Counted from the first letter of the stretch, positions 12,735-48,331 are shown. The stretch: 64,000 nucleotides of DNA from Alphaproteobacteria bacterium UBA828 (GCA_002296185.1 DBHM01000013.1:5273-69272), one strand, 5' to 3'. The notes: a model not told the origin generated them from the sequence alone. Translations and numbers: made by a program.

Positions 12735-12749
12735 AGCGTCATTCCTTCC

Positions 12750-30328: not shown

Positions 30329-30348
30329 TTTGCGTTCCTATAAAATTT

Positions 30349-32418
30349 CTAAGGAGCCGGTTCTATGACCAGGCTGCCACTCTTCATTTTCGAAGCTTTT
30401 GCTTCCGGATCAATGACCACAGTTGTAAAAGAGGATTCTATTATCGCTGGGCCTGTAATAAAAAGTTCACTATCCATTGATTCAAATTTATGGACCGGAG
30501 TATCGATAAAACCAACACCATCAAAATAAGCTTGTCTAAATTCCTGATTAGACTCAACTTCACAATCTTCAACTAGCTGAAATGCATGCTTATCCCTTAG
30601 TCTACAACTAATATTTGCTCTCCATCCGACAAATTCTATATCCGATTGCTTATCAGAAATAGCAAATAAATCTTCATGAGTAGAATGAAAATCAGAATGT
30701 AATTTAGCTAGGTCATCTTCATTAGATATCAAACCGCCTCTTAAAGGTACCTCGATTTCCCAAATTTGACTTGGATAACGAGCTTCTGCGGTAAATTCAA
30801 TAGTATGATCAATACATCCTTCACCGGGTCCACTTAAGAATAACTTACATTGACTTAAAAGATTATCAAGGAGGCCATTAACACCTTTAAAATCAAAGTT
30901 TGAGGTATCTGTAAATAAAGTTGCGCTATACTCTCCTCTTAGATCAGACATTAAGGCACCAGCTGCAGAAAGTGTTGCAGACGTATCTGGAATAATTACT
31001 TGCTTACATCCTAATCTTTGCCCTATCGCGACCATATTTAAACCCGCCGCTCCTCCTCCACCAATTAATACAGCATCTCTAGGATCTATTCCTTGATTAA
31101 CTGTAATATCCTCAATAGCATGAACCATATTCTCGGTAGCGACTTTTAGAACTGCATAAGCAGCTTCTTTTGTTTCTAGTCCAAGTTTATCAGCAATACC
31201 TGAATTAATTGCTTTCAATGCGGCTTTATGATCAAGGTGCATTGCACCACCTAGAAAGTAATTAGGGTCAATCCATCCTAAAACGACTGAGGCATCTGTT
31301 ACAGTCGCCTCTGTACCGCCCTTTCCATAGCAAACAGGTCCCGGAACAGCTCCAGCACTTTGAGGGCCTACATGAAGCAACCCTCCTTCATCAACCCATG
31401 CTATACTTCCACCTCCAGCACCTATACTTTTAACATCAACTGCGGGAAATCCTGTCATATGGCCACGATAAGGTTGACCAATCCAAGTTTCTCTAGTCCA
31501 TGGAATTCTGCCGCCTCTAACTAGACTAACATCGAATGTAGTGCCCCCTGTATCTGCAATAATTGCAGTATCTACCCCCGTATCATGGCTAGAATAATAA
31601 CGACCTGCTACAGGAGCCATAGCTGGCCCTGAATTAATAGAATGAATGGGAGATTTAGCCATATCAGCTGCATCCATTGCACCACCCTGAGTCGTTACAA
31701 CCAAAACACGGCCATCGAAACCAGCATCTTTTAAACGCTCTTTAAGCCCACCAAGATAACTACCCATAAGGGGTTTTAGTGAAGAATCGATAACAGTTGA
31801 TGATGCTCGCCTATATTCTCTTAGAGAAGGATTAATTTTATGGGAAAGGGTATAAGGAATACCAGGTAAATGCTCTTCAATCAGTTTCCCAATTTTATTT
31901 TCGTGAATCGGATTAACAATTGACCATAATAAACATACACCAATTGCTTCTACTTTTTCTTGCCTTATACTTTCTAATGTTTCTATTAAATGATTCTCAT
32001 CGAGAGGCTCAATTATTCGACCGTCATAAGCAACACGCTCTTGAATTTCATAAGTTAAGGATCGCGGAACATATGGCTTAGGAAAATCAGCAGTAAAATC
32101 AAAAGGCTCAGCTCTCCCGCCCTCTCTAAAAACTAATACATCCGGATGTCCCATTGTTGTCAAAAAAGCTGTCTTTGCAGTGTTATTGGTTACAATAGCG
32201 TTAATAGCACGCGTAGTGCCGTGAATAAGCATATCTCCCTTTAATAAAAAATCTCTATCAGACAAACCAAAATCGTTTGCAGCTAAATGAAGTGTATCGA
32301 GAACACCTTTTATAGGGTCATCAGGTGTTGTAGAGGATTTATAAAGACGAACATCACCATTAACATCTTCTACAACTAGATCTGTAAAAGTACCACCTGT
32401 ATCAACTGCAAATCTCAT
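30349..32418 (-). CDS. Hydantoinase A/oxoprolinase family protein (HyuA-like, set 2)
   Basis: 689 aa. MRFAVDTGGTFTDLVV, ADTGGTTFDVS and GAGGGSIAWV. Confidence 0.9.
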   Translation of the reverse strand: MRFAVDTGGTFTDLVVEDVNGDVRLYKSSTTPDDPIKGVLDTLHLAANDFGLSDRDFLLKGDMLIHGTTRAINAIVTNNTAKTAFLTTMGHPDVLVFREGGRAEPFDFTADFPKPYVPRSLTYEIQERVAYDGRIIEPLDENHLIETLESIRQEKVEAIGVCLLWSIVNPIHENKIGKLIEEHLPGIPYTLSHKINPSLREYRRASSTVIDSSLKPLMGSYLGGLKERLKDAGFDGRVLVVTTQGGAMDAADMAKSPIHSINSGPAMAPVAGRYYSSHDTGVDTAIIADTGGTTFDVSLVRGGRIPWTRETWIGQPYRGHMTGFPAVDVKSIGAGGGSIAWVDEGGLLHVGPQSAGAVPGPVCYGKGGTEATVTDASVVLGWIDPNYFLGGAMHLDHKAALKAINSGIADKLGLETKEAAYAVLKVATENMVHAIEDITVNQGIDPRDAVLIGGGGAAGLNMVAIGQRLGCKQVIIPDTSATLSAAGALMSDLRGEYSATLFTDTSNFDFKGVNGLLDNLLSQCKLFLSGPGEGCIDHTIEFTAEARYPSQIWEIEVPLRGGLISNEDDLAKLHSDFHSTHEDLFAISDKQSDIEFVGWRANISCRLRDKHAFQLVEDCEVESNQEFRQAYFDGVGFIDTPVHKFESMDSELFITGPAIIESSFTTVVIDPEAKASKMKSGSLVIEPAP

Positions 32419-32473: not shown

Positions 32474-32839
32474 TCAATCAATTATTTCAGTATCTGCTCC
32501 TCTAAAAAAACAACTACGGTAATTTAGATGGCACGCATCTCCTTTTTGATCCACCAAAAGTAGTAAAGTATCTCCATCACAGTCAATTCTAATATCTTTT
32601 AATTTTTGAACATTACCCGAAGTCTCCCCTTTCCTCCAAAGATTTTTTCTTGAGCGAGACCAATAACAAGCGTAACCTTCCTTAAATGTTGTATGAATAG
32701 ACTCTTCGTTCATCCAAGCCATCATTAAAACTTCTTTAGTATCATATTGCTGAACAATAGCTGGAACGAGTCCTGAAGAATTAAACGCAACATTAGAGAC
32801 AAATGTATCAGAAATTTCCTGGGAAAATTTTTTCTCCAT
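32474..32839 (-). CDS. hisI: Phosphoribosyl-AMP cyclohydrolase
   Basis: 121 aa. LVPAIVQQYDTKEVLMMAWMNEES...YWSRSRKNLWRKGETSGNVQKL..IRIDCDGDTLLLLVDQKG.ACH is the canonical monofunctional HisI sequence. Confidence 0.85.
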   Translation of the reverse strand: MEKKFSQEISDTFVSNVAFNSSGLVPAIVQQYDTKEVLMMAWMNEESIHTTFKEGYACYWSRSRKNLWRKGETSGNVQKLKDIRIDCDGDTLLLLVDQKGDACHLNYRSCFFRGADTEIID

Positions 32840-33050: not shown

Positions 33051-33824
33051 ATGGATAGTTTTATAAAAGAAGAAGCATATGAAGGTATTACAGTTTTAAC
33101 TCTGTCAAGAGTAGAAAAACGTAATGCACTTAATTATCGTATGGCAAACGAGATAATTGATACACTTGAGAAATTAACAAAATCTGATGATTGTAAAGCT
33201 GTAGTTATTACAGGATCAGGTTCTAAAGCATTTTGCTCAGGTATGGATCTCAATAATTTAGCAAAATTTGATGAGATTGAAGCTACTAATTGGGTTACAA
33301 ACCTTCAAAAGCTATACACTACTATAAGGATGTTCGATAAACCACTCATTGCTGCTATTAACGGTATCGCCGCTGGTGCAGGTTATCAAATTGCACTTTT
33401 AGCAGATATAAGGATAGGTTGCCCGAATACCAAGATGAGCCAACCAGAAATAAATGTTGGATTACCTAGCTTACTCGGTGCTCATTTGATGCTACCATTT
33501 TTAGGGTTATCAAAAACAACGGAGCTTACTTATACAGGACGTACTATGGATTCTGATGAAGTTTTACAACTTGGTTTAATAAGCAAGATTGTTTCTTCTG
33601 AAAAACTTCTAGAAGAGTCAATTGATTATGCTGAAGATTTGGCAAGTAAGTCACCTTTAGCTTTTAGAAAAACTAAGGAACAATTACGCAAAATTACTCA
33701 GCCAGGACTTGATAAATTATTTACAGAGGCAAAAAGAATACAAAGTGAGGCTTTCTCAACGGGTGAGCCTCAAAAAATTATTCTAGAGAAAATAAAAGAA
33801 TTTAAAAATCCTATGAAACAATAA
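33051..33824 (+). CDS. Enoyl-CoA hydratase/isomerase (crotonase) family protein (paralogue 1)
   Basis: 257 aa. VVITGSGSKAFCSGMDL and AAINGIAAGAGYQIALLADIRI oxyanion-hole blocks. Confidence 0.85.
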   Translation: MDSFIKEEAYEGITVLTLSRVEKRNALNYRMANEIIDTLEKLTKSDDCKAVVITGSGSKAFCSGMDLNNLAKFDEIEATNWVTNLQKLYTTIRMFDKPLIAAINGIAAGAGYQIALLADIRIGCPNTKMSQPEINVGLPSLLGAHLMLPFLGLSKTTELTYTGRTMDSDEVLQLGLISKIVSSEKLLEESIDYAEDLASKSPLAFRKTKEQLRKITQPGLDKLFTEAKRIQSEAFSTGEPQKIILEKIKEFKNPMKQ

Positions 33825-35955
33825 CTACAGAATCGACCGCAACACATTTATCAAGACCTATCTTAATTGGGTTTATATCAACTTCTATTATTTCAGGTAA
33901 GCACAAAGATAATTCTCCTAATATCCTAACAATTTCAACAAACTGCAATATTGATTCAGAAGATACTTTATCTGAGTCATTTAAAGTCGATTCAATTCGT
34001 AAAGTATTTAATGCTTTAATTACTTGATTGTTATTAAAGGGAGGAACAAGCAAATCATAATCAGATAAAAGCTCGACCATAGAGCCTCCAGTCCCAACTG
34101 TCACAACAGGCCCAAATACTGGATCTCTTTTCATGCCTACTATTAATTCAATTGAATCTGGGATCATTTCCTCTATTAAAAAACCATCAACTTTCGCAAG
34201 AGGATGAAGTTCCTTAACTCTCTCTAAAATTTCATTCGCGCCTAAAGTTACATCATTGCTTGATCTTAAATTTAAAAGTACTCCACCAGATTGAGCTTTA
34301 TGAATAATATCTGAAGATGAGATTTTGAGAGCAACAGGATAGCCTATCGATTCTGCTGCAGCTACTGCTGTTTTTATATCCTTTGAATGTTTGTATTTTG
34401 CCATAGGAATTCCACAATGACTTAAAACGGTTCGAGAATCATATTCAGATAAAGATCCTCTTTTTTTTCCAATAAGCTCATGAAGTTCATTTGATTTTAA
34501 GTTTATTACTGGAACATTATATTTTTCATATTTAAAAAATGCCTCGTGCTCAAAAGTTTGATTTAACAATGATTGTTCACAAAGTATATTAGCCATATGA
34601 GCTAGTTGTTTTGGCGTACGATATACCGGAACTCCTAACTTACGAAGAGTTTTAGGCCCCTCCGGATCACCACCAAACCAACCAGCAATCATAGGCTTAG
34701 ATATTAGCTTATTTGCATCGCCTATTTGTTCAGTTATTTTGTCTGTATGCTGTCTAATTACACCAGGAAAAGGGATCACAATATCAATATTCTGATCTTC
34801 AGCAACAACTTGAAGCTGTTTTGATATAACACTAGGATTCGTCAACCATTTTAATGTTACATCAGCTGGATTTTTTGGACTACCAAAACTAGGTAAGGTT
34901 TTTGATAAATTTTTCTCTGTTTCTGCCGAAAAGTTGGGAAGAGATAAACCAACTGACCCCAAAGCATCCGCACATAAAACTCCTATTCCTCCCGAATTGG
35001 TTAAAAGTCCTATATTTTTTCCTTCTGTGGGTATATTACATAGAGATAGTAATTCGAGGGCATCGATAAGAGTTTCGATATCTTCAACAACAACAGCACC
35101 CCATTGCCGTAATGCAGCGCAATGTGTATTCCAGTTTCCAGCCAAAGCAGCTGTATGTGATGCAGCAGCACGAAGACCTACCTCATCACGACCCCCTTTT
35201 AATAATACAACATAAACACCCTGTGAACGTGCAAAAATTATACTTTCTCTAAGTTTTTCTGCTTGATTAACGCATTCAATATAAGCACCTATAACTTTGA
35301 TTTTTTTTCTGGTAGCGCCATAATTTATAATATCAGCAATTGAGACATCTATTTCATTACCAAGACTTACCAGAAAGCCCATACCTATGCCCCGGTCTAT
35401 ACATTCATTAGCTACAATTCCGCCCATAACACCACTATGTCCAGCAAACCCTATTGGGCCAGTTTGATCTAATCCAGGCTTAAGTTCCGAACTAAAATAT
35501 GCAACCATAGATTGGTGGAAATTTGCTATACCTTGGCTATTTGGTCCACATACTAAAGTTTCACCATTAAAAATTATGTCTCTTAGTTTAATTTCGATCT
35601 TACTACCTAAGGGTCCAATCTCAGAAAACCCACTAGAATAAACTACAGCTGCATCCACACCTGCAATCTGACAATTTTTTAGAGAATTACAGACTAATTC
35701 TGCTGGTAAAGATATTATAGCTAGATCAATTTTCTCATTTATATCTCTAATATCTTTATGGCATTTCAATCCTGCAATATACTCCCTACCTGGATTTATA
35801 GGTATAATTTTTCCTTTAAATCCAAAAGATTGAAGATATCTAACAGCTCGGCCACCAGGTTTAGCAAGATTTTCACTAGCCCCAACTACAGCAATTGTCT
35901 TCGGTTCTAATAACCCCGAAAGGTCTCTTACTAATTTTTCTTCTCTATTTATCAT
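33811..35955 (-). CDS. ADP-forming acyl-CoA synthetase (fused CoA-binding/ligase + ATP-grasp domains)
   Basis: 714 aa. N-terminal IAVVGASENLAKPGG (CoA-binding), a central succinyl-CoA-ligase-like region and a C-terminal ATP-grasp (GYPVALKISS...). The 3' end overlaps the convergent crotonase by 14 nt. Confidence 0.8.
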   Translation of the reverse strand: MINREEKLVRDLSGLLEPKTIAVVGASENLAKPGGRAVRYLQSFGFKGKIIPINPGREYIAGLKCHKDIRDINEKIDLAIISLPAELVCNSLKNCQIAGVDAAVVYSSGFSEIGPLGSKIEIKLRDIIFNGETLVCGPNSQGIANFHQSMVAYFSSELKPGLDQTGPIGFAGHSGVMGGIVANECIDRGIGMGFLVSLGNEIDVSIADIINYGATRKKIKVIGAYIECVNQAEKLRESIIFARSQGVYVVLLKGGRDEVGLRAAASHTAALAGNWNTHCAALRQWGAVVVEDIETLIDALELLSLCNIPTEGKNIGLLTNSGGIGVLCADALGSVGLSLPNFSAETEKNLSKTLPSFGSPKNPADVTLKWLTNPSVISKQLQVVAEDQNIDIVIPFPGVIRQHTDKITEQIGDANKLISKPMIAGWFGGDPEGPKTLRKLGVPVYRTPKQLAHMANILCEQSLLNQTFEHEAFFKYEKYNVPVINLKSNELHELIGKKRGSLSEYDSRTVLSHCGIPMAKYKHSKDIKTAVAAAESIGYPVALKISSSDIIHKAQSGGVLLNLRSSNDVTLGANEILERVKELHPLAKVDGFLIEEMIPDSIELIVGMKRDPVFGPVVTVGTGGSMVELLSDYDLLVPPFNNNQVIKALNTLRIESTLNDSDKVSSESILQFVEIVRILGELSLCLPEIIEVDINPIKIGLDKCVAVDSVVIVS

Positions 35956-35964
35956 AGAAGAAAC

Positions 35965-36342
35965 TTAAATAGGCTTCCATGCTATTGCCTCTACTTCAAC
36001 TTTTGCGTCAACCATAAGCTTTGCTTCAACAGTAGCTCTCGCTGGAGGATCTTTAGGAAAATATTGAGAGTAAACTTCATTGAAATCCTGAAAGTCTTTG
36101 GTGCTTTCAAGCCAGCAAGTACATTTAATAACATCACTTATCTCACATTCAGCTTCTCGTAATAATGAAACTATTCTATCCATTACGATTCTAGTTTGAG
36201 CTGCAACATCTCCATCTACTATTTTACCATCATCTCCAACAGGAATTTGACCAGATACAAAAACATAATCACCAGCTCTTACTGCTCCTGAAAGGGGCAA
36301 TCCTGGAATATTACCATATACTTTTTTTGTTTTATCATTCAT
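35965..36342 (-). CDS. RidA/YjgF/TdcF family (enamine/imine deaminase-like)
   Basis: 125 aa. GDYVFVSGQIP...AQTRIVMDRI...PARATVEAKL...VEVEAIA. It lies 9 nt upstream of the acyl-CoA synthetase. Confidence 0.8.
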   Translation of the reverse strand: MNDKTKKVYGNIPGLPLSGAVRAGDYVFVSGQIPVGDDGKIVDGDVAAQTRIVMDRIVSLLREAECEISDVIKCTCWLESTKDFQDFNEVYSQYFPKDPPARATVEAKLMVDAKVEVEAIAWKPI

Positions 36343-36423: not shown

Positions 36424-37173
36424 GTGAGAAGATTAGAAGGACACATAGCAGTAATAACTGGTGGCGCCGGAGGAATAGGCAAAGAAATAGCCAAAAGGTT
36501 CTCCTATGAAGGAGCCGCAATAGCTCTATTAGATATAGATAAAGAGGCAGTTGAGAAAGTAGCGTCTGAAATATCTAAAGATGGGGGAAATATTATATCC
36601 TCTATCATTGATGTTACAAATGAAGAATCTATTTTAAATGCATATAGTAATGTTACTTCCAATATTGGAGACCCTGACATATTAGTAAATTCAGCAGCGA
36701 TAGCTGGAGGCTCAGAACTTGAAGATATAAGCACTTCAGACTGGGATCAAATAATGAATATTAACCTTCGAGGAACTTTTCTTTGTTGTAGAGAAATCAT
36801 ACCAATAATGAAAAGGATTGGTTGGGGCCGAATAATTAATATTGCTTCTGAAGTTGCAGATAGGGGACACCCCGGGCTTAGTCACTATGCAGCATCTAAG
36901 GCAGCAGTAATAGCAATGACAAAATGCCTAGCACTGGAAGTGGTGAATGACAACATAAGAGCAAATGTTTTATCTCCTGGACCAACTAAAACACAAATGC
37001 TCGATGGTCTTGATGAAATAACACTATCGAATCTACTCTCAGACCTTATGCCAATAGGAAGATTAGGAAAACCTGAGGAGATAGCAGCAGCAGCAGTATA
37101 TCTAGCCTCAGACGAAGCAGACTTTTGTGTGGGAACAACATTAAATATAAATGGAGGCACATATAGATCATAG
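36424..37173 (+). CDS. Short-chain dehydrogenase/reductase (FabG-like)
   Basis: VITGGAGGIGK cofactor motif and the YAASKAAV catalytic YxxxK. GTG start behind GGGAG. Confidence 0.85.
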   Translation: MRRLEGHIAVITGGAGGIGKEIAKRFSYEGAAIALLDIDKEAVEKVASEISKDGGNIISSIIDVTNEESILNAYSNVTSNIGDPDILVNSAAIAGGSELEDISTSDWDQIMNINLRGTFLCCREIIPIMKRIGWGRIINIASEVADRGHPGLSHYAASKAAVIAMTKCLALEVVNDNIRANVLSPGPTKTQMLDGLDEITLSNLLSDLMPIGRLGKPEEIAAAAVYLASDEADFCVGTTLNINGGTYRS

Positions 37174-37195: not shown

Positions 37196-37876
37196 TTATT
37201 TAAGTACTCTTAACACTTCATCTGAAGACATGACATCTCCAAATTGCTGTATGAATGTTTCCAAGGTTACTAAATGCTCTTCGTCAGAAAGAGCCGCAAG
37301 GCAATCTGATACCATAACAGTTTTAAAATCTAGCATCATAGCATCTCTTCCAGTTGCATCACAGCAAACATTAGTTTTAGTACCTGCAATCAAGAGAGTA
37401 TCTAGATTATTACTTCTAAGGTAACGTTCTAGGTTGGAAGATCCTGAGATTAAAGCGCTATATCTATTTTTAGTTAGCTTAATATCAGAAGATAAAATAT
37501 CCAGCTCATGCCAAAAGTCTTGGCCCTCTTCACCCGCTCGTAATCCCTTAATAGTTTTATCCTTCATATCATCTGAAACAAAGTAATCAAAAAAATTCGA
37601 CCAATCTGTTGAGTCACCGAAATCTTGATTTGCGTGAGCTATCCAAATAATTGTACCACCCTTAGAACGAATATTTTCTGCGAGTTTATTTATATTTGAA
37701 ACTATATTACGACCCATAGGAACTTCAACAGCTCCCCCTGGTTTCAGAAAAGTATTCTGCATATCAATGACTACAAGAGCGAGATGTTGAGGGGATAAGT
37801 GGTCGAACAAATGAAACTTACCACGCCTGGAAACAACTCGATCGATAATATTTTTTCTGATAGCAACCTGATGCAT
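37196..37876 (-). CDS. Isochorismatase-family cysteine hydrolase (paralogue 3)
   Basis: 226 aa. LALVVIDMQNTF and LLIAGTKTNVCCDATGRDA motifs. Last gene of the HyuAB set 3 operon (7-nt gap). Confidence 0.75.
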   Translation of the reverse strand: MHQVAIRKNIIDRVVSRRGKFHLFDHLSPQHLALVVIDMQNTFLKPGGAVEVPMGRNIVSNINKLAENIRSKGGTIIWIAHANQDFGDSTDWSNFFDYFVSDDMKDKTIKGLRAGEEGQDFWHELDILSSDIKLTKNRYSALISGSSNLERYLRSNNLDTLLIAGTKTNVCCDATGRDAMMLDFKTVMVSDCLAALSDEEHLVTLETFIQQFGDVMSSDEVLRVLK

Positions 37877-37883
37877 AACTACC

Positions 37884-38156
37884 TCATTTTATAATTTTAT
37901 CATATAAAAATGGATCATCATGAATGGCTGTTTCGGTATCAAGTAATGCATAACAACCTGGACAAAAAAATCGGCGTAATAGTAGCCCCTGGGAAACAGT
38001 ATAATTATCTCCACATAGATCTTGCATAGATTCTTCAGAGATAATAACTGACTTCTTCCAATGAAGATCTTGATCACATATTTTATATTCACAGCAACTA
38101 CATACTATAGAGCCCCTGCCATTAAAGCTGAGAGTTTCTGAAAGCCTTGACTTCAT
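37884..38156 (-). CDS. Small Cys-rich protein resembling the C-terminal part of acetone carboxylase gamma subunit
   Basis: 90 aa. IVCSCCEYKICDQDLHWKK and LLRRFFCPGCYALLDTE recall, from memory, the CxC...C...NWK and REYFCPxCGT...VE blocks of AcxC-type subunits. The start overlaps the hyuB stop (TAATG). Confidence 0.55.
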   Translation of the reverse strand: MKSRLSETLSFNGRGSIVCSCCEYKICDQDLHWKKSVIISEESMQDLCGDNYTVSQGLLLRRFFCPGCYALLDTETAIHDDPFLYDKIIK

Positions 38157-39979
38157 TATGAGCCGCCCCCTCTAACTCTATTATTTAATATATTTTTTCT
38201 TAATATTACACTTTGTTCTAAGTCGACCTGACCATTTATAATTATTGCACCATAAATTTCTTTAGCCGCATTTTCACTGACAAGTCCTTCATTAACATCT
38301 TTTTCTAAAGACTTAAGGTCTCTTTTTAATGGGTCACCGTAACCGCCACCCCCGTTCCAACGAACATGCAAGTAGTCATTGCCAAATAATGGGAAGACTC
38401 CCCAAGATATATTTTCTTTATCTCCCTCATAAGAATTAGATCCAACTAATAAATCATCTGACAAACACCTATCACTATTCTTTTTTTGATTTTTTATCCA
38501 GGTATACCTTGATGGAGCGCCAGGGTAACCTCCAGCTAAACCCTCACTCATTGGATAACTAGTCCCTTTCCCGGAAACTACGTAATTTATACCACCATCT
38601 GGTGCATCATGAGGTGTAATGGCAAATTCTGCACCAGCACCACCTCTATAAGTTCCTGGACCACCAGAATCCTTGAGACGCCTTCGAAATAAATATCTAA
38701 CCGGAAAAGTCCACTCCATTGTTTCCACATTAGCCATTCTAGAAATAGGATTAGGAATTTCTCCCCCCACATCTACACCATCTCCAATAGAGCGAGCCCC
38801 GGCTGCACCTCCAAATGTTTCTGTTAATATACCTATGGAATCAGAACTTCTTTGGTTTTTACCGAACATAAAAATTGCAAAATGACTTCCATGCCAAACG
38901 GCTGTTGCTTCATTTTTATATTTGTCGCTTGCTGAAAGCATTTTTGAAATACATGTACAAGCAGCATTGTTAACCGCCTGAATTGCACCAACAGTAGCAA
39001 TAGAAACTGGAGCCGGGCGAGTAGCATTAACAACTGTACCCTCTGGTGCTTTCATCTCTATAGGTTTAATTACACCTTCATTCCAAGTAATATCGTAGCA
39101 GAGTAAAGGAAATAATGGCGCAAAGAGTCCACCCCAAGAAGCCCATTTTGAACAATTAATTCCATACTTTGATTGTGGGCTAGAGCCACTAAAATCAAAA
39201 GACAGTGTATCTTTTGATTTAGTCATTTTTAAAATGACCTTATACGTTTCATCTTTAACATTAAAATATTGACGAGATTCCCAACTACCATCAGGTAGTT
39301 CTAGTAAACGTTCACGTAGAAGATCTTCAGACTGATCAATTAAATTACTACATGCCTCATCAACTATGGATATACCATATTTTTTTACAAGACCTTGCAT
39401 CCTGTCACGTGCAACATTATTACAGGCGATCATCGATGATATATCTAGAGCAACCATTTCAGGAGAACGAACCATATTTAAGAGTGTATCCATAACATCT
39501 TTTCGTATCTCTCCTCTATCAACAATTTTAAGTCCAGGTGAGGAAAAACCTTCAGTAAAGATGTCTAGCGATTCTGGACTAAAACCCCCTGGGTTCATGG
39601 CTCCAATATCATAAACGTGTACAAAACATGCACTCCATGCGACCAACTTACCTTCGGAATGAATAGGAGCTACTAAATAGACGTCGGAAGTATGCAAAGC
39701 AGCAGTGTAAGGACAGTTTAATAAAAAAACATCATTCTCATTAATATCTGAATTAAATTTATTGATTATAGACTTACATGCCTCAGCTGCACTAGTTAGG
39801 TGATGAAGAAACCCCACACCTCCCATTAATAAAGAACCATCTGCTCTATACAATGAAACCATAAGATCATGGCCTTCATTTGTTATTGCGCTTCCAGATA
39901 CATGTTTGAGTGTTATTACTGCTTCATCAACTATCCGAAACAACCTATGGCGTATGATTGAGAAAGTAATAGGGTCCAT
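38156..39979 (-). CDS. Hydantoinase B/oxoprolinase family protein (HyuB-like, set 3)
   Basis: 607 aa. MDPITFSIIRHRL N-terminus and NGGGGYGDPLKRDL near the C-terminus. Confidence 0.9.
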   Translation of the reverse strand: MDPITFSIIRHRLFRIVDEAVITLKHVSGSAITNEGHDLMVSLYRADGSLLMGGVGFLHHLTSAAEACKSIINKFNSDINENDVFLLNCPYTAALHTSDVYLVAPIHSEGKLVAWSACFVHVYDIGAMNPGGFSPESLDIFTEGFSSPGLKIVDRGEIRKDVMDTLLNMVRSPEMVALDISSMIACNNVARDRMQGLVKKYGISIVDEACSNLIDQSEDLLRERLLELPDGSWESRQYFNVKDETYKVILKMTKSKDTLSFDFSGSSPQSKYGINCSKWASWGGLFAPLFPLLCYDITWNEGVIKPIEMKAPEGTVVNATRPAPVSIATVGAIQAVNNAACTCISKMLSASDKYKNEATAVWHGSHFAIFMFGKNQRSSDSIGILTETFGGAAGARSIGDGVDVGGEIPNPISRMANVETMEWTFPVRYLFRRRLKDSGGPGTYRGGAGAEFAITPHDAPDGGINYVVSGKGTSYPMSEGLAGGYPGAPSRYTWIKNQKKNSDRCLSDDLLVGSNSYEGDKENISWGVFPLFGNDYLHVRWNGGGGYGDPLKRDLKSLEKDVNEGLVSENAAKEIYGAIIINGQVDLEQSVILRKNILNNRVRGGGS

Positions 39980-39986
39980 TGTTACC

Positions 39987-42107
39987 TCAAATTGATTTAA
40001 TTAAAATATTTCGCAAATCGTCCATTTTACCAACCTGATCTAGTTGGATAACAATCGTTGTTATTGGAGTATGTATAACAGCAGGACCCGTTATCTCATT
40101 CCCTGAACTTAATTTATCAAAATCATAAATGGGCGCTTCTACCATACCATCTTTTGCATCAACAAATATATTTCTTGTACCTATTTGAGCGCCCTTACTA
40201 TCAATTCCACTATATTGAGATTTTTCAACGTTAGGCCTCTCAACCAAACCTCTAGCTGTAAGACGAAACATAGTCATTTCTATACCCGCTTCCTTATAAG
40301 CAGACCCCTTTCCATATCTACGCTCATACAAGGTCTCGAAATCTGATATTAATTGACTCATATTTTCATCATCTAGAGGGACGCTCACCTTTATAGGAGT
40401 TGTTACTTCATGGACTTGTCTTCCGTACCTAAAATCTATTGCCCATTCGAGGGATATTTTTTTATCAGTGAAACCCTCAGATAATAACTGAGAATGACCC
40501 TTGAGAACCATCGGTTTGAAAATATTATTAATATGTTCTGCAGAGCACGGGAGTGAACATGTTTCTGTATGTGTATATTCATGCACTATATCTGCTGAAG
40601 CTAATCCAAAAGCACAATTTACGGATGCAGCATAAGGTACAACTATGTTTTTAACATTTAATTCAGCGCCAAACATAGAACATAACAATGGACAGCTGCC
40701 TCCAAATGCGTGCAAAACAAAGTCCCTCGGGTCCAAGCCCTGCTCAACAGTAATTTCATGTATTAAATCAGTGACCTGTGCTGCAGCTATTCTATATATT
40801 CCAAAAGCTGCAGTTTCAATATCCAAGCCGAGAGGTTGTGCAATTTTCTTATTAAAGACTCTCCGAGTATTTTCTACATCAAGTTTAATGGAGCCACCTA
40901 AAAATCTATCTGGATCTATATAACCAATCAATAGCATTACATCCGTGAGTGTTGGTTCATCACCTCCCTGTCCGTAGCATACCGGGCCAGGGACAGCTCC
41001 TGCACTAATAGGACCAATACGAGGGATATTTGTTCGAGGGTCAAGCGAAATTATACTTCCTCCACCTGATCCAATTGATACAACCTCTATCTTTGGCGCA
41101 ACATAGTGAAAACGGTCAACCATAGGCTCTCTAGAGTGACTAAGCTCTCCATCCTGAATAACCCCGACTTTAAAAGTAGTGCCACCCATATCTGCTGCAA
41201 TAATATTTTCTTCACCCATCAAACTTCCAAGATAACGGCTACCTATAACTCCTGCCGCTGGACCGCATTCAAGCATACCTACAGCACGATCTGCTGCTTC
41301 ACGAGCAGATAATAATCCACCGTAACCTTGCATAACTAAAATTTCACCATTATAGCCTTCTGCCTCTAATTGAGACTCAAGACTTGTAAGATAGTTTTTT
41401 GTTATACTACCAGCATAAGCATTGATAACTGTTGTTGAAGTTCGTTCATATTCTCCTGGAACGGGGGCAATTTCGTTTGACAATGAGACATAAACTCCAG
41501 GAGATACTTTGTTTATTATCTCTTTTATTTTTTTTTCGTGTTGTGGATTAAAAAATGACCAAAGGAGACTGACAGCAATAGCATCAACTTTTCCCACTTC
41601 TATTAGACTTCGTATAGAAATCTCAGCGGCAGCTTCATCAAGTTGAAGGAGAATCTCTCCTTTATAATCAACCCTTTCACTTACACCCTCTATTCTATCA
41701 GTCGGGACTAAAGGTTCTGGCCTATCAGTTGCTACAGGATGTTTTATTTTATCTTCAGTCAAACCACCCCAACGGCCATATGCACCTCTTGTCATTAGAA
41801 GTGTATCCTCAAAACCTTTAGTAGTAATTAGACCCGTACGATCACCTGTGCGTGTAAGAAGGGCGTTATCAACAACTGTTGAACCATGAACAAAGAGACG
41901 ACATGATGAAAATAGTTCGGCTAAACTAAGACCTATTTCCTCAGCTGCAGAATATACAGAATTAATTATACCATCTGCAAAATTTGGAGGAGTGGATAGT
42001 GCCTTCCCGAGTTTCAACCCTTCCCCAGCAGCAAAAATAACTGTATCAGTACACGTGCCCCCAACATCTGTAGCAATGATGTACTTTCCGCCCTTAAGCC
42101 TTTCCAA
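39987..42107 (-). CDS. Hydantoinase A/oxoprolinase family protein (HyuA-like, set 3)
   Basis: 706 aa. TTG start 8 nt behind a GGGAG RBS. IIATDVGGTCTDTVIF, ADMGGTTFKVG and GSGGGSII. Confidence 0.9.
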   Translation of the reverse strand: MERLKGGKYIIATDVGGTCTDTVIFAAGEGLKLGKALSTPPNFADGIINSVYSAAEEIGLSLAELFSSCRLFVHGSTVVDNALLTRTGDRTGLITTKGFEDTLLMTRGAYGRWGGLTEDKIKHPVATDRPEPLVPTDRIEGVSERVDYKGEILLQLDEAAAEISIRSLIEVGKVDAIAVSLLWSFFNPQHEKKIKEIINKVSPGVYVSLSNEIAPVPGEYERTSTTVINAYAGSITKNYLTSLESQLEAEGYNGEILVMQGYGGLLSAREAADRAVGMLECGPAAGVIGSRYLGSLMGEENIIAADMGGTTFKVGVIQDGELSHSREPMVDRFHYVAPKIEVVSIGSGGGSIISLDPRTNIPRIGPISAGAVPGPVCYGQGGDEPTLTDVMLLIGYIDPDRFLGGSIKLDVENTRRVFNKKIAQPLGLDIETAAFGIYRIAAAQVTDLIHEITVEQGLDPRDFVLHAFGGSCPLLCSMFGAELNVKNIVVPYAASVNCAFGLASADIVHEYTHTETCSLPCSAEHINNIFKPMVLKGHSQLLSEGFTDKKISLEWAIDFRYGRQVHEVTTPIKVSVPLDDENMSQLISDFETLYERRYGKGSAYKEAGIEMTMFRLTARGLVERPNVEKSQYSGIDSKGAQIGTRNIFVDAKDGMVEAPIYDFDKLSSGNEITGPAVIHTPITTIVIQLDQVGKMDDLRNILIKSI

Positions 42108-42139
42108 ACCAATACTCCCTATTGATCTTTATAGATAAA

Positions 42140-43306
42140 TTAGATCAATACGCTTCTAAGAAGTAAAATCAAGTCCTTCTTACCTTCAAATCCAATACCT
42201 GGGTTATCGTGTAGATAAATACCCTCTGGACTTAATGAATATCCATCAAAAAAACCACCAAAAGGTTCAAAAACCCCTGGATATGCTTCATTACCTCCCA
42301 ATCCAAGACCTGCAGCAATATTTAAAGCCATCAAATGACCACCATGTGGAATACACGATCTTCGAGACCAGGCATGTTTTTCAAGCATTTTAATAGTTCG
42401 CATAAATTCAACAAGCCCATAACTGAGTGCTGGATCAAACTGAAGAATATCTGTTTCGCTTCTTAATCCACCATAAAGTATCAAATTTTTTGAATCTTGA
42501 GATGAAAACAAATTTTCACCAGTGGCGATTGGTCCTTTATAATTATCAGCAATAATATGACTCAACTCATAATCTAATGGATCTCCAGGTTCTTCATACC
42601 AACGTAATTTATACGGCGAGATCATGTTACCAAAGTCTAGAGCCTGCTGAGTATTAAACCTTCCATTTGCATCTACAGCAAGATTACTAGGATCAGCAAC
42701 AATTTTTAACACAGCCTCTATTCTTTTTTTATCATGATTAATATCTGCTCCACCTACTTTAATTTTAACTACTTCAAAACCTTGATCTAAATAACTACGA
42801 ACTTCATCCCGCAAAAGATCCAAATCCTTTTCAGGCTGATAATAACCACCTGCAGCGTATACGAAAACTTTTTCATCATATTTACCTGAGTTAAAATTAT
42901 CGGATAGATATTTCCATAATGGTATATTAGCTATTTTAGCAACAGCATCCCAGATCGCCATATCGAGAGTTCCAACGCCAACTGCTCGCTCACCATGACC
43001 ACCTGGCTTTTCATTTACCATCATAGCATTCCAGAGTTTAAAGGGGTCTAAATTATCACCCATTACATTAGATTGCTCTTTTTCTGATAAGTTCATTATA
43101 CGGGGTATCAAACGCTCACGCATCAAAGCCCCCTGACCATATCGTCCATTAGAATTAAAGCCGAATCCTACAACCTGCTCTCCATCGATAAATTGGTCAG
43201 TAATAATAGCAACCACACTTGCTGTCATTTGTGAAAAATCTATATATGCATTCCTTATAGAACTCTGTAATGACACTGTTTTTTCTTTTATATCAAGGAT
43301 CTTCAT
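42140..43306 (-). CDS. Enolase-superfamily enzyme (mandelate racemase/muconate-lactonizing enzyme family, MR-type KxK)
   Basis: 388 aa. FEVVKIKVGG (KxK), AVDANGRF, WYEEP and ATGENLF metal/acid-base blocks. Substrate cannot be read from the sequence. Confidence 0.8.
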   Translation of the reverse strand: MKILDIKEKTVSLQSSIRNAYIDFSQMTASVVAIITDQFIDGEQVVGFGFNSNGRYGQGALMRERLIPRIMNLSEKEQSNVMGDNLDPFKLWNAMMVNEKPGGHGERAVGVGTLDMAIWDAVAKIANIPLWKYLSDNFNSGKYDEKVFVYAAGGYYQPEKDLDLLRDEVRSYLDQGFEVVKIKVGGADINHDKKRIEAVLKIVADPSNLAVDANGRFNTQQALDFGNMISPYKLRWYEEPGDPLDYELSHIIADNYKGPIATGENLFSSQDSKNLILYGGLRSETDILQFDPALSYGLVEFMRTIKMLEKHAWSRRSCIPHGGHLMALNIAAGLGLGGNEAYPGVFEPFGGFFDGYSLSPEGIYLHDNPGIGFEGKKDLILLLRSVLI

Positions 43307-43475
43307 TCTATAAATTCCAATTGTTTTATTAAATTATAAACTATGGCTTGTTTGTTAAAAGTTTTTCCTGTGTAGTTATGCTAACATCACTAAGTAAATT
43401 ATAAATAAATTAAAGTTATAGATTTTAATTTATTATACTTTATCAGATGTATGATCTGTTTAAATAATAGTATGA

Positions 43476-45680
43476 ATGGCAAAAAAACTAAGGATTATTA
43501 AATTGGTAAAATTAACCGCTATAAACACCGACACCCCTTGGCATAGAGTAGAATCTGAAGAGAGTGATTGGAAAGAAGTTGACCATAAGCTTTTAACACA
43601 AATGTTGGAGCAACTTTTTATTATTAGATCCTTTGAAGAAAAATCCCTAGATCTATTTAAGGCTGGATGCATTCATGGGCCCGCTCACGCTAGCATAGGC
43701 CAGGAAGGTGGTGCCATAGCAGCTATGTCAGTCTTAAATTCAAAAGATAAAATTAATGCAACACATAGGGCTCACCATCAATTTTTATCTAAATTCTTGT
43801 TTCACAAATCACCAGTAAATTATGACCCAAGAGAGAGTAATCTTCCAGAAGAACTAGATGATGTTATATATCGTTCTCTCTCTGAAATTATGGGACTAAA
43901 GGATGGATACTGTGGCGGGCGCGGAGGATCCATGCATATGAGGTGGGATGAAGCTGGTGTACTTGGTACAAATGCTATTGTTGGAGGAAATCCCCCACAA
44001 GCCGTGGGCTATGCATTAGCAGAAAAATTGCGAAATAGTAACCAATTAACAGTTACCTTTTTTGGTGATGGGTCAATGCAAAATGGTGCGGCATACGAAG
44101 CACTTAACCTTGGTGCCCTTTATGATCTACCAATAATCTTTTTCAATGAAAACAATCTATATGGTGTCTCTACTCATGTCTCTGAAACTACAAGAGAAAC
44201 AAGGCTAACCGCAAGAGGGCTAGGTCTTGGTATACCATCACTTGAAGTTGATGGTATGGACATTATAGCTGTAAGGAAAGCTATGTTATGGGCTAAAGAC
44301 TATATTGCTAAAAATAAGGGGCCAGTCCTTATTGAATCTCAAACTTACAGATATTTTCATCAACATGGTCCAATGCGTGGTAGCGCATTTGGCTATAGAA
44401 ATAAATCTGAAGAAGAAAAATGGGTTAAAAAAGACCCTTTCGTTACTTTTCCAAAAAAGTTAATAGATCTTAAAATAATTACTTCAGATTCAGTAGAAGA
44501 AATTAAATCTAGATCATTCAATACTGTAAAAAATGCTGCTTCTCGTCTCACTGAAACATCTCCAGACGGAAGTAACCAACTGCAAGTTAGGTCAGAAATG
44601 TGGCCACAAGTAGATACAGTCGAACATGGTATTAAGGGTGACCTCTCCGAACTTGGGAATCAGAGGTTTATAGAAATTGAAGATATAGATCCAAAAAATA
44701 CAAAGGAAATGAAGTTCATTGAAGCTATAGCTGCTGTACAGCTTCGAGCAATGGAACGAGATGAGCGTGTTTTTATAATGGGAGAAGATGTGCAACATTT
44801 AAAAGGGGGAACTGTTGGTGCTACAAAAGGTATTCTAGAACGCTTTCCTGAACGTCTCATAGGAACACCAATTGCAGAAAATGGATTCTGCGGAATGGGC
44901 CTTGGAGCTGCTGTCAACGGAATGAAGCCAATTGTTGAAATAATGTATTCAGATTTTATTTTAGTTGCCGCTGATCAACTGTTCAACCAAATAGGTAAAG
45001 TGAGGCATATGTTTGGTGGCAACCATTCAACCCCACTTATTTTACGAACAAGGGCAGCTGGTGGAGGTGGTTATGGATCCCAACATTCTATGGATCCAAG
45101 TGGAATATTTGCCGCATACCCTGGCTGGAGAGTTATCGCACCCTCGAATGCGTTTGACTATATTGGCCTGTTTAACTCAGCAATATTATGTGACGATCCA
45201 GTTGCAATAATAGAATGCCAATCATTATATCAAGATATATCAAATGTTCCCGAAGGTGACCTTGATTATTGCATACCTTTTGGTAAAGCTAAAATAGTAA
45301 GCTCAGGTCGTGAATGCACGATAATATCATGTGCAAATATGGTTGCTAGTTCTATTAAAGCTGCAGCTGAACTAGATATTGATGCGGATATAATTGACCT
45401 CAGAACCGTTGATACATTAAGTCTAGACTGGGAAACCATTGGAACTAGTATAAAGAAAACAAACAAAGTTATGGTTGTTGAACAAACTGCTCGTGGACAT
45501 GGACTAGGGGCTCGTATAGTTCAAGAAATTCAAGAAAGATTCTTTGATTGGCTTGATCATGAAGTTATTAGAATAAGTGGCACACATAGCGCTCCAGTAG
45601 TATCAAAACCACTAGAGGCGGCAGCACTAGCTGGTATGGATGATATAAAACAAGGAATATTATCGCTTTGTAAAAATTAA
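43476..45680 (+). CDS. Fused E1 alpha-beta thiamine-diphosphate-dependent 2-oxoacid dehydrogenase/acetoin-cleaving-type component
   Basis: 734 aa. The N-half carries IIRSFEEKSLDLFKAGCIHGPAHASIGQEG and FFGDGSMQNGAAYEALN (TPP motif GDG...N). The C-half carries the transketolase-like pyrimidine-binding and C-terminal domains (MGEDV..., TPIAENGF...). Confidence 0.8.
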   Translation: MAKKLRIIKLVKLTAINTDTPWHRVESEESDWKEVDHKLLTQMLEQLFIIRSFEEKSLDLFKAGCIHGPAHASIGQEGGAIAAMSVLNSKDKINATHRAHHQFLSKFLFHKSPVNYDPRESNLPEELDDVIYRSLSEIMGLKDGYCGGRGGSMHMRWDEAGVLGTNAIVGGNPPQAVGYALAEKLRNSNQLTVTFFGDGSMQNGAAYEALNLGALYDLPIIFFNENNLYGVSTHVSETTRETRLTARGLGLGIPSLEVDGMDIIAVRKAMLWAKDYIAKNKGPVLIESQTYRYFHQHGPMRGSAFGYRNKSEEEKWVKKDPFVTFPKKLIDLKIITSDSVEEIKSRSFNTVKNAASRLTETSPDGSNQLQVRSEMWPQVDTVEHGIKGDLSELGNQRFIEIEDIDPKNTKEMKFIEAIAAVQLRAMERDERVFIMGEDVQHLKGGTVGATKGILERFPERLIGTPIAENGFCGMGLGAAVNGMKPIVEIMYSDFILVAADQLFNQIGKVRHMFGGNHSTPLILRTRAAGGGGYGSQHSMDPSGIFAAYPGWRVIAPSNAFDYIGLFNSAILCDDPVAIIECQSLYQDISNVPEGDLDYCIPFGKAKIVSSGRECTIISCANMVASSIKAAAELDIDADIIDLRTVDTLSLDWETIGTSIKKTNKVMVVEQTARGHGLGARIVQEIQERFFDWLDHEVIRISGTHSAPVVSKPLEAAALAGMDDIKQGILSLCKN

Positions 45681-45715
45681 TTTATAATTAGGTTAATCAT
45701 TTAAAGGAGTAAATC

Positions 45716-46177
45716 ATGTCAAAAAATAAAGGTATTCTAGATGATCTAATTATAAAATCTCATCATACCGCCGTAAGTGTTAAGGATTTTGATTCTGCCC
45801 TTAAGTTCTATATAGAAATGCTTGGATTCGAGAGTATAGGCGAAATAAGAGATCGCTGTGAACCAGGTTTTGCAGAAGCAACTGGCGTACCAAATGGAAA
45901 AGCTCACTGGGCGATGCTAAAAAATGATAACTATCACATAGAACTATTCCAGTGGGTTAATCCTATAGGTGAACTAGCTGCAAATCGACAATGCGACCTT
46001 GGATATACGCATATAGCCCTACAAGTAAAGAATATTGATGCTGCTTATGAAAAGGTTATTGCTTCAGGATTTAAAACACTAAGTCCACCATTAACTCTTA
46101 GGGGCGGAGCTGCTAAAGCAATTTATATTCAAGCGCCAGAAGACAACATAACAGAGTTAGTTGAATATCGGGATTAA
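45716..46177 (+). CDS. VOC (glyoxalase/bleomycin-resistance/dioxygenase) family protein, methylmalonyl-CoA epimerase-like size
   Basis: 153 aa. HHTAVSVKDFDSALKFYIEMLGF...HIALQVKNID. AAGGAG RBS. Confidence 0.75.
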   Translation: MSKNKGILDDLIIKSHHTAVSVKDFDSALKFYIEMLGFESIGEIRDRCEPGFAEATGVPNGKAHWAMLKNDNYHIELFQWVNPIGELAANRQCDLGYTHIALQVKNIDAAYEKVIASGFKTLSPPLTLRGGAAKAIYIQAPEDNITELVEYRD

Positions 46178-46293: not shown

Positions 46294-48330
46294 TTATGAT
46301 ATATGGAGATATCCAAGAGAGTCTACATTCAGTATTTGTTTGGGGTGAATAATTGTTGTTGCCGATTTCTCCTCTACCAGCAAAGGCCCTTCCATGGTAA
46401 AACCTGGATTTAAACACTCCCTATCAAGCACATGGCATTCATGTACACCATCCTCACCAAAAGAAACCTTTCTTTTTCCCTTAAAAGATTGGCTTTCATC
46501 AAATCCACCCTTTATTGAGTTTGATGAAGGGCGTGGAACAGGAGCAGTTGCAATTAAATGATAATTTACAATTTCTATAAGAGTAGATTTTAGACTGAAA
46601 GTGAAAGCTCTCTCATGCGCAATATGAAAATTCTTTTTAATAGAATCTAAAGAATCTCTGCTGTAATCAACTGAAATACCAACCCAGTGTTCTTGTCCTT
46701 GATATCTAAGATCAATAGATGTTTCAAATTTAACATCACCAATATTTATATCTTTATCATCTGAAAAATAATCTTTTGCTGAGTCTTCAAGATCAGAAAA
46801 AATTTCCTTGATTTCATTAACGCTTATATTATCTATTTGGCGTAAGCGAGTAAGAACAAAATCTTTTCTTGGTTCCGTTGCAAGCATGCCCCATGCTGAG
46901 AAATAGCCAGGATACCTTGGAACAATTATTTCTTTAACCCCAAGTTCCCTACCAAGTGTTGCTGCATGCATTGCTCCACCACCACCACCAACTACTAAAA
47001 CAAAATCTCGTGGGTCATGACCTCTCTGTATAGAGACTAGTTTTAGGGCATTAATCATATCCGCATCTGCAAGTCTAATGATTGATTCTGCCGCCGATAG
47101 AATATCGACACCTAAACCTTTTGCAATTTTATTCATCGCTTGTTCAGCTTTATTCAGGTCTAACTTTATACGACCTCCAGCAAAATAGTTTGGATCAAGG
47201 ACACCCGCAATCAACTTAGCATCCGTTACAGTAGGTTCTATACCTCCCATCCCATAGCATGCAGGGCCTGGATCAGCTCCTGCGCTTAAAGGTCCCACCT
47301 TAAGTGAACCAACCTTATCGAACCATGCAATAGAACCTCCACCTGTTCCTATTTCAACAATATCTACAACAGGTATTTTTACTGGATAACCTGGATTCAG
47401 TCGTGACCATTCAAGCTTGTAATCTGTTGTTACGGTTACCTTGCCCCCTTGAATAACTGAACATTTGGCAGTTGTGCCGCCAATATCTAAATATATTACA
47501 TTGCTTTCTTCGCACAGTTTTCCGACAAGAGCTGCGCCGTTTACCCCTGCTGATGGACCAGATTCCACAAGAGTGATTGGATGAGAACGAGCCCACTCAA
47601 AACTCGTTGAACCACCATTAGATTGCATGGCATGCATCGGACAATTAAAGCCTTTGCTATTCAAGGAAGTTTCTAAAGCATTAAAATAGTCTTGCACAAT
47701 TGGCTGAACATACGCATTAAGTACAGCTGTATTAGCTCTTTCATATTCCCTCCACTCCCTTGTGATTTCATGGCTTGCAGTGACAGCAACATCTGGTAAA
47801 TGCTCAATAATATATTTAGAGCATTGCTCTTCATGATATGGAGAAGAATAACTATGAAGGAATACTATTGCTATTGCTTCAATTTTTTCTTGTTTACATT
47901 GAGATATAACCAAATCTAGGTCAGACATACAGAGAGGCTCTATAATTTTTCCGTTTGAATCTATCCGTTCACTTACCTCAAATCTTAATTTACGAGGAAC
48001 AAAAGGTGTTGGCTTTCTAAAACGAAGATTATAGAGGTCCGGCCTATTTCCTCTAGCAATTTCCAGTATATCTCGAAAGCCCTTAGTTGTGACAAGTGCT
48101 GTCTTTACACCCTTCCTTTCAGTAATTGCATTAATAACTGTTGTACCGCCATGAACAAAGAATGTGATAGACTGAGGGGTAATTCCAGCAAGATTGATTG
48201 CATCTTTAACACCATCAGTTAAATCTTTTGGTGTAGTAAGTGATTTTTCAGTAATTAGCTCTCCTGAAATTTCATCAAAAGCCACTACGTCTGTAAAAGT
48301 ACCACCAATATCAGCTGCCATGCGGCCCAT
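46294..48330 (-). CDS. Hydantoinase A/oxoprolinase family protein (HyuA-like, set 4)
   Basis: 678 aa. MAADIGGTFTDVVAF, LDIGGTTAKCS and GTGGGSIAWF. It lies 1 nt downstream of HyuB set 4. Confidence 0.9.
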   Translation of the reverse strand: MGRMAADIGGTFTDVVAFDEISGELITEKSLTTPKDLTDGVKDAINLAGITPQSITFFVHGGTTVINAITERKGVKTALVTTKGFRDILEIARGNRPDLYNLRFRKPTPFVPRKLRFEVSERIDSNGKIIEPLCMSDLDLVISQCKQEKIEAIAIVFLHSYSSPYHEEQCSKYIIEHLPDVAVTASHEITREWREYERANTAVLNAYVQPIVQDYFNALETSLNSKGFNCPMHAMQSNGGSTSFEWARSHPITLVESGPSAGVNGAALVGKLCEESNVIYLDIGGTTAKCSVIQGGKVTVTTDYKLEWSRLNPGYPVKIPVVDIVEIGTGGGSIAWFDKVGSLKVGPLSAGADPGPACYGMGGIEPTVTDAKLIAGVLDPNYFAGGRIKLDLNKAEQAMNKIAKGLGVDILSAAESIIRLADADMINALKLVSIQRGHDPRDFVLVVGGGGGAMHAATLGRELGVKEIIVPRYPGYFSAWGMLATEPRKDFVLTRLRQIDNISVNEIKEIFSDLEDSAKDYFSDDKDINIGDVKFETSIDLRYQGQEHWVGISVDYSRDSLDSIKKNFHIAHERAFTFSLKSTLIEIVNYHLIATAPVPRPSSNSIKGGFDESQSFKGKRKVSFGEDGVHECHVLDRECLNPGFTMEGPLLVEEKSATTIIHPKQILNVDSLGYLHIS

Positions 48331-48331
48331 A

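Follow-up and report, generated by a model that had tools for sequence, protein, structure and literature searches.

A gamma-bearing HyuA/HyuB gene module linked to an isochorismatase-family cysteine hydrolase in Alphaproteobacteria bacterium UBA828 and related loci

What does an ATP-dependent enzyme of the HyuA/HyuB type do when it carries a gamma subunit and is encoded next to an amidohydrolase? Under the current annotation rule, two genes denote a hydrolase and three genes, with gamma, a carboxylase, and this rule is broken by a gene cluster at positions 37196–43306 of a 64,000-nucleotide (nt) stretch of DNA from Alphaproteobacteria bacterium UBA828 (GCA_002296185.1 DBHM01000013.1:5273-69272; the whole stretch is hereafter the window, in whose positions coordinates are given, while L001, L002, and so on are labels of related loci). 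An initial annotation, generated by a model from the sequence alone, regarded five genes of this cluster as its best candidate for an undescribed catabolic system. Here, we report that four of the five form a unit that is widely conserved and, it appears, uncharacterised, with components all of known families and a chemistry that is probably conventional, and we weigh which reactions this unit might catalyse.

The five open reading frames (ORFs) are all on the minus strand and encode, from upstream to downstream, an enolase-superfamily enzyme (ENOL, 42140–43306; 388 amino acids (aa); Pfam MR_MLE_C), a HyuA-type alpha subunit (HYUA, 39987–42107; 706 aa with a TTG start; Pfam Hydant_A_N, Hydantoinase_A, and Hydant_A_C), a HyuB-type beta subunit (HYUB, 38156–39979; 607 aa; Pfam Hydantoinase_B, 398 bits), a Cys4 zinc-ribbon-like mini gamma subunit (GAM, 37884–38156; 90 aa; Pfam Acetone_carb_G), and a cysteine amidohydrolase of the isochorismatase family (ISO, 37196–37876; 226 aa; Pfam Isochorismatase, 128 bits). 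In that order they are separated by 32 nt, 7 nt, a 1-nt overlap, and 7 nt, the overlap being a TAATG in which the GAM start meets the HYUB stop (junction sequence CTCATAATG), and a purine-rich ribosome-binding site precedes each start, the junctions showing GGGAG, GAGG, GAGGGGG, and GAGG. ORF calls confirm the gene positions and spacings first reported, Pfam confirms the domain assignments, and the genes, being tightly packed, are probably co-transcribed, as had been claimed. Promoter and terminator scans returned nothing above shuffled controls, and the five terminator-like matches within the cluster, against a shuffle mean of 5.0, carry no weight.

Which of these genes belong together was addressed by the neighbourhood survey that the initial annotation had proposed. 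Scanning one genome per GTDB species with HYUB yielded 80 loci at 67–79% identity from Alpha-, Beta-, and Gammaproteobacteria and Actinomycetota, with cultured carriers that include Vineibacter, Pandoraea, Variovorax, Mesorhizobium, Salinihabitans, and Microbaculum, and neighbours were counted across them by tblastn. Among the 72 informative loci, i.e., those with enough downstream sequence, GAM follows HyuB in 70 and ISO (≥45% identity) follows gamma in 64, while both are found in 63, always in the order HyuA-HyuB-gamma-ISO. This arrangement is far beyond chance. ENOL, in contrast, lies next to HyuA in only two of the 80 loci, and the functional unit is therefore one of four genes, not five. 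In a large protein database, 1720 proteins score <1e-100; the relatives in a plasmid collection reach no more than 49% identity, with no orthologue among them, and in the open-access literature we found no paper in which a gamma-bearing HyuAB is linked to a hydrolase of the isochorismatase family.

The core of the unit combines features of two enzyme groups. HYUA carries the ASKHA-type ATP-site motifs of hydantoinase and ketone-carboxylase alpha subunits (DxGGTxTD at residues 14–21, DxGGT at 306–310, and GxxPGP at 370–375), which are kept in 49–51 of 51 orthologues. In HYUB, an Asp-His-Asp-His metal tetrad (D38, H96, D99, and H121) is invariant in all 57 sequences compared and aligns with D41/H99/D102/H124 of the caprolactamase subunit CapB, where the tetrad is essential and which has it in common with acetophenone carboxylase (Apc) (PMC8453981), and also with the ligands of Apc and acetone carboxylase (Acx). 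Its first ligand is Asp, as in Apc and in the Hyd branch (N-methylhydantoinase, caprolactamase CapAB, and 5-oxoprolinase OplAB), whereas Acx has Glu. The module further resembles the Hyd branch in its HyuA + HyuB architecture, ATP motifs, and metal site, and in its best NCBIfam scores, which are to CapA/CapB (511 bits for HYUA and 232 for HYUB, ahead of Apc at 408 and 180), though all of these are far below any equivalog cut-off. Against the PDB, HYUA scores 389 bits to Apc, 380 to N-methylhydantoinase, 345 to caprolactamase A, and 322 to Acx, and HYUB scores 181 to Apc, 180 to CapB, 178 to N-methylhydantoinase, and 126 to Acx, its most distant solved relative. Similarity to the Hyd branch is remote (~180 bits for beta), and Apc, caprolactamase, and N-methylhydantoinase are nearly equally distant from the two subunits, so that any placement among them would be deep.

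Subunit lengths and gene content were compared using the length criterion and family definition of Weidenweber et al. 2017 (PMC5214803). The 607-aa beta subunit, with a ~57-aa tail beyond the Pfam domain, falls between those of Hyd (~570–580 aa) and Apc (684 aa), close to Hyd-type length rather than to that of Apc or Acx (~720–776 aa), and the 90-aa gamma compares with 129 aa in Apc and ~165–168 aa in Acx, where it has an N-terminal extension. The initial annotation was therefore right to call both proteins shorter than their carboxylase counterparts. The cluster has only one HyuA-type gene, with no alpha' or epsilon, unlike Apc, whose four to five genes, apcABCD(E), encode both; the alpha-beta-gamma order is that of acx, and Hyd enzymes are encoded by two genes, hydAB, without gamma (PMC5214803). 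By these criteria the system counts as a hybrid, with acx gene order, a near-Hyd beta, and a gamma shorter than in either carboxylase, and its sizes, metal ligand, and 126-bit score to Acx distinguish it from bona fide acetone carboxylases.

That GAM is a Cys-rich subunit of the gamma type is borne out by several lines of evidence. The protein matches Pfam Acetone_carb_G at 29.5 bits against a gathering cut-off of 21, and although a word-indexed protein search returned the query itself only, HMMER, run exhaustively over 1.84 billion representatives, recovered 107 clusters, mostly of 85–110 aa, some of which have the domain at the C-terminus of far longer proteins. All 42 aligned members keep the four cysteines of the CxxC...CxxC pattern (C19, C22, C65, and C68). 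An AlphaFold2 model (mean pLDDT 92.9) had significant Foldseek matches in the PDB only to acetone carboxylase gamma (TMq 0.78–0.79) and, within the core complex of acetophenone carboxylase, to the small subunit (TMq 0.83, TMt 0.60); the match that followed had an E value of 0.75. GAM corresponds to the zinc-binding core of these two subunits, AcxC and Apc-gamma, and lacks the N-terminal extensions that both of them have. Similarity to AcxC and conservation beside HyuB, on which the initial annotation had staked the assignment beforehand, were thus both found. Independent evidence that gamma binds beta comes from natural fusions with the gamma domain at the HyuB C-terminus, namely in Halorientalis (L081, 8971–11136; 722 aa, 49% identity), in L087 (10001–12106; 701 aa, HyuB part 70% identical), and in P0031 (686 aa). 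Gamma is absent from all Hyd complexes, and in the Apc structure it lies far from the active sites and probably has a structural role (PMC5214803), so that its reading as a hallmark of carboxylation, as first proposed, reflects a correlation only.

The fourth component, ISO, was correctly annotated as an isochorismatase-like cysteine hydrolase. Conservation across 46 orthologues is ≥95% for its Asp-Lys-Cys triad (D38-K136-C171), for C172, and for seven Arg, and the conserved Arg suggest an anionic substrate. While it shares its fold and triad with RutB, N-carbamoylsarcosine amidase, BiuH, and nicotinamidase, ISO is about equidistant from them, differs from them in the conserved Cys-Cys pair and the seven Arg, and falls below the cut-off of every NCBIfam equivalog (RutB 64 bits, BiuH 60). 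Its PDB matches are an uncharacterised cysteine hydrolase (3IRV, 69 bits), RutB (55 bits), and two N-carbamoylsarcosine amidases (1NBA, 47 bits; 26ST, 31 bits). Separately, a reading of the cluster as Rut-like is kept only as a speculative case (see below): ISO scores weakly to RutB (64–86 bits, with a cut-off of 378), and the nearby short-chain dehydrogenase/reductase (SDR) is not specifically YdfG-like.

Genes that recur around the unit provide hints of its substrate. Across the 80 loci these are XRE-cupin regulators (34 loci), often upstream of HyuA or between gamma and ISO as XRE-HTH/cupin proteins, Bmp binding proteins of a Bmp-type ABC transporter (19), AMP-forming CoA ligases (16), a CDA-fold deaminase directly after ISO (11), an amidase-signature amidase (9), the large subunit of an XdhABC-like molybdenum hydroxylase (9), and RidA (6). 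The commonest extension is the same-strand Bmp-type transporter right after ISO, seen in those 19 loci and also in L084, L090, L091, and, without a called substrate-binding protein, L083; in L090 and L091 precomputed Pfam assignments give, on one strand, HyuA-HyuB-gamma-ISO-Bmp binding protein-ABC ATPase-two permeases, and L084 has the same string plus regulators and a three-subunit molybdenum hydroxylase of the xanthine-dehydrogenase type. With the transporter directly after ISO, uptake and two enzymes make a self-contained unit, and the smallest recurrent unit is a polar-compound transporter, an ATP-dependent enzyme, and an amidohydrolase. Further contexts include TonB receptors, TRAP and Liv-type transporters, and Rieske oxygenases. 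Overall, the XRE-cupin regulators, deaminase, amidase, molybdenum hydroxylase, and RidA point to N-heterocycles.

The reading we favour, as the most economical, is a mineralisation in two steps, in which ATP drives the opening of a cyclic amide or ureide and the carbamoyl or amide group so exposed is then hydrolysed, and on the sequence evidence we regard it as evenly balanced between right and wrong. In this scheme, a dedicated transporter would import a small cyclic amide or ureide. By analogy with the family, the alpha subunit would use ATP to phosphorylate the carbonyl oxygen (imidate form), and water would open the activated ring at the Asp-His-Asp-His metal site of beta, with the Cys4-zinc gamma acting as a structural clamp on beta. 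The ring-opened product would end in a carbamoyl or amide group and would probably also have a carboxylate, and ISO would deamidate or decarbamoylate it to release ammonia and possibly CO2. Candidate substrates are compounds of the hydantoin, dihydropyrimidine or pyrimidine, purine-ureide, and cyclic-imide types. Creatinine degradation, in which N-methylhydantoinase acts together with N-carbamoylsarcosine amidase, offers a precedent, and the logic of the module would match this pair or that of a hydantoinase and a carbamoylase.

A broader claim may be made only tentatively and seems to us doubtful, namely that HyuAB-gamma and ISO represent the first gamma-bearing ATP-dependent ring-opening amidohydrolase and define an undescribed route of two steps for mineralising an abundant N-heterocycle in many Proteobacteria and Actinomycetota of sea, fresh water, and soil. 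As an example, ATP could drive the hydrolytic opening of a pyrimidine, dihydropyrimidine, or purine-derived ureide, with RutB-like removal of the ureido group to follow, and in the clade of the window the RidA, SDR, and ADP-forming acyl-CoA synthetase genes would then, speculatively, form a Rut-like lower pathway. The module, with its Hyd-like core, minimal gamma, and obligatory amidohydrolase partner, occurs in at least 80 species-level genomes. Its substrate, once identified, would tell what this widespread set of genes, at present mislabelled "N-methylhydantoinase," does and whether gamma relates to carboxylation, and it might uncover a new ATP-dependent way into mineralising organic nitrogen heterocycles.

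Several observations weigh against ring opening. First, the characterised enzymes of the family that bear gamma are all carboxylases, and the characterised hydrolases lack it (PMC5214803, PMC8453981). Second, ISO is not close to any characterised member of its own family. Third, the gene order is that of acx, and parts of the surroundings fit a route from ketone to beta-keto acid to CoA ester. In 16 of the 80 loci an acid-CoA ligase adjoins the module, much as in apc-bal; some of these ligases lie immediately upstream of HyuA, and in L085 one of the PrpE/Acs-like type follows ISO. In the window, an ADP-forming acyl-CoA synthetase, a RidA-family gene, and an SDR flank ISO (33811–36342, minus strand, and 36424–37173, plus strand), and this succession of ISO, SDR, RidA-family protein, and ADP-forming acyl-CoA synthetase is syntenic in L001, L002, and L007. 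A BKACE-family protein adjoins the module in L001 (1005–1919), L082 (6838–7764), and L074 (10267–11184), directly upstream of HyuA in the first two, and that of L082 scores 547 bits against an NCBIfam cut-off of 430 for 3,5-dioxohexanoate:acetyl-CoA acetone transferase, a context in which carboxylation of acetylacetone to 3,5-dioxohexanoate is a speculative possibility.

The first and third of these also speak for the best-surviving alternative, a genuine ATP-dependent carboxylase of the Acx/Apc type, acting on a ketone or beta-diketone, that would convert a methyl ketone to a beta-keto acid for a CoA ligase or BKACE, with the cysteine hydrolase acting on an amide-bearing substrate earlier or later. 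To them can be added the Acx/Apc fold of gamma and the haloarchaeal HyuB-gamma fusion (49% identity), which lacks ISO and lies among beta-oxidation-type genes (enoyl-CoA hydratase, MaoC, SDR, and AMP-ligase). However, ISO is linked to the module in 64 of the 72 informative loci, known pathways with a ketone carboxylase have no role for it, and tight linkage to this amidohydrolase and to polar-compound transporters sets the module apart from Acx and Apc alike, a Bmp ABC transporter fitting a polar N-compound rather than a diffusible ketone. Beta and gamma are also much shorter than in both carboxylases, the alpha' and epsilon of Apc are missing, and the first metal ligand and the score to Acx point away from that enzyme. 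On balance, we regard a ketone carboxylase as a serious contender, though a rather unlikely one.

Ring opening by the known creatinine-pathway pair, N-methylhydantoin amidohydrolase and N-carbamoylsarcosine amidase, is what KEGG-style annotation implies, and many HYUB orthologues carry the JGI name "N-methylhydantoinase B." An ATP-dependent HyuAB followed by an isochorismatase-family amidase is indeed the logic of that pathway, so the initial statement that no described pathway combines these chemistries is not supported; since this pairing has a precedent and ENOL is an ordinary neighbour of the tartrate-dehydratase type, the system is less unusual than first proposed. An N-carbamoylsarcosine amidase (1NBA) is, moreover, among the PDB matches of ISO. 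Nevertheless, HYUA and HYUB score no better to the solved N-methylhydantoinase (PDB 7HK5) than they do to caprolactamase or Apc, with 380 and 178 bits, respectively, the solved enzyme is a single 1288-aa chain without gamma, and ISO is nearer to 3IRV and RutB than to either solved N-carbamoylsarcosine amidase. With no sarcosine oxidase or dehydrogenase, creatininase, or CodA-type creatinine deaminase seen in ~20 inspected neighbourhoods, we deem it improbable that the module is this pair.

ENOL, which the initial annotation had placed in the same system, is best read as a member of the characterised D-tartrate-dehydratase family that happens to adjoin the module in this lineage. As had been noted, it has the KxK motif (K181/K183) of an MR-type enzyme. 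It matches Bll6730 of Bradyrhizobium (PDB 2DW7/2DW6/1TZZ) at 510 bits (E 4e-152) and 58% identity over 382 aa, end to end, and its K100, K181, K183, D212, E238, E264, D291, and H321 correspond to K102, K182, K184, D213, E239, E265, D292, and H322 of that protein. We take Bll6730 to be the D-tartrate dehydratase TarD of Yew et al. 2006, with the roles of the aligned residues assigned as there, so that ENOL keeps all catalytic residues of the enzyme (KxK, the Asp/Glu/Glu Mg ligands, and the His-Asp dyad). Yew et al. 2006 is cited in PMC2948282 and PMC10079672. The context of ENOL, next to hyuA and divergent from a fused E1 thiamine-diphosphate (TPP) enzyme, is undescribed. The two loci in which it adjoins HyuA, L002 and L007, share the whole window neighbourhood, and ENOL is probably co-transcribed with, and functionally separate from, the four-gene module. 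That all five genes form one new pathway, with ENOL supplying, e.g., a racemase or dehydratase step before or after the ATP-dependent enzyme, is the least probable reading of all: the 32-nt ENOL-hyuA gap with its ribosome-binding site and no terminator, and the juxtaposition kept in the next-closest genomes L002 and L007, are consistent with it, but ENOL is absent from 78 of the 80 loci, the closest relative, L001, has a BKACE gene in its position, L002 and L007 keep the divergent E1/VOC genes along with it, and 58% identity to D-tartrate dehydratase with catalytic residues kept makes sugar-acid dehydratase the default role.

Upstream of ENOL, an AT-rich divergent intergenic region of 169 nt (43307–43475) contains a single weak sigma-70-like match (minus strand, 43332–43305) and is a probable promoter region for both the cluster and the opposite E1/VOC genes. 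These (43476–46177, plus strand) encode a 734-aa fused E1 alpha/beta thiamine-diphosphate enzyme (E1_dh, Transket_pyr, and Transketolase_C) and a VOC/glyoxalase-fold protein, with no E2 or E3 nearby and with synteny in L002 and L007 only. A split thiamine-diphosphate enzyme, with separate TPP_enzyme_N and TPP_enzyme_C genes, lies downstream of the module in L013 (9217–10456) and L090 (15544–16675), in unrelated contexts. For the gammaproteobacterial clusters, a purine-ureide reading with a class-V aminotransferase as PucG-like was rejected, as this protein scores as cysteine-desulfurase-like and the other aminotransferase as PhnW, with neither matching ureidoglycine aminotransferase.

As a whole, the window has the look of a catabolic island in which ATP-dependent enzymes of the hydantoinase type abound. 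It contains three more HyuA/HyuB pairs (10812–14804, 28541–32418, and 46294–50050), none with a gamma ORF, since a GAM-family profile searched against the six-frame translation of the window matched nothing besides the GAM ORF. Beyond HyuB of the second pair, on the opposite strand, a second isochorismatase-family gene (26877–27500, plus strand) lies beside genes for a zinc alcohol dehydrogenase and a SnoaL-like protein. Finally, a stand-alone 121-aa PRA-CH protein (HisI-type phosphoribosyl-AMP cyclohydrolase; 32474–32839, minus strand) is encoded 55 nt upstream of HyuA of this second pair on the same strand, an odd partner for a hydantoinase; HisI opens a purine ring hydrolytically.

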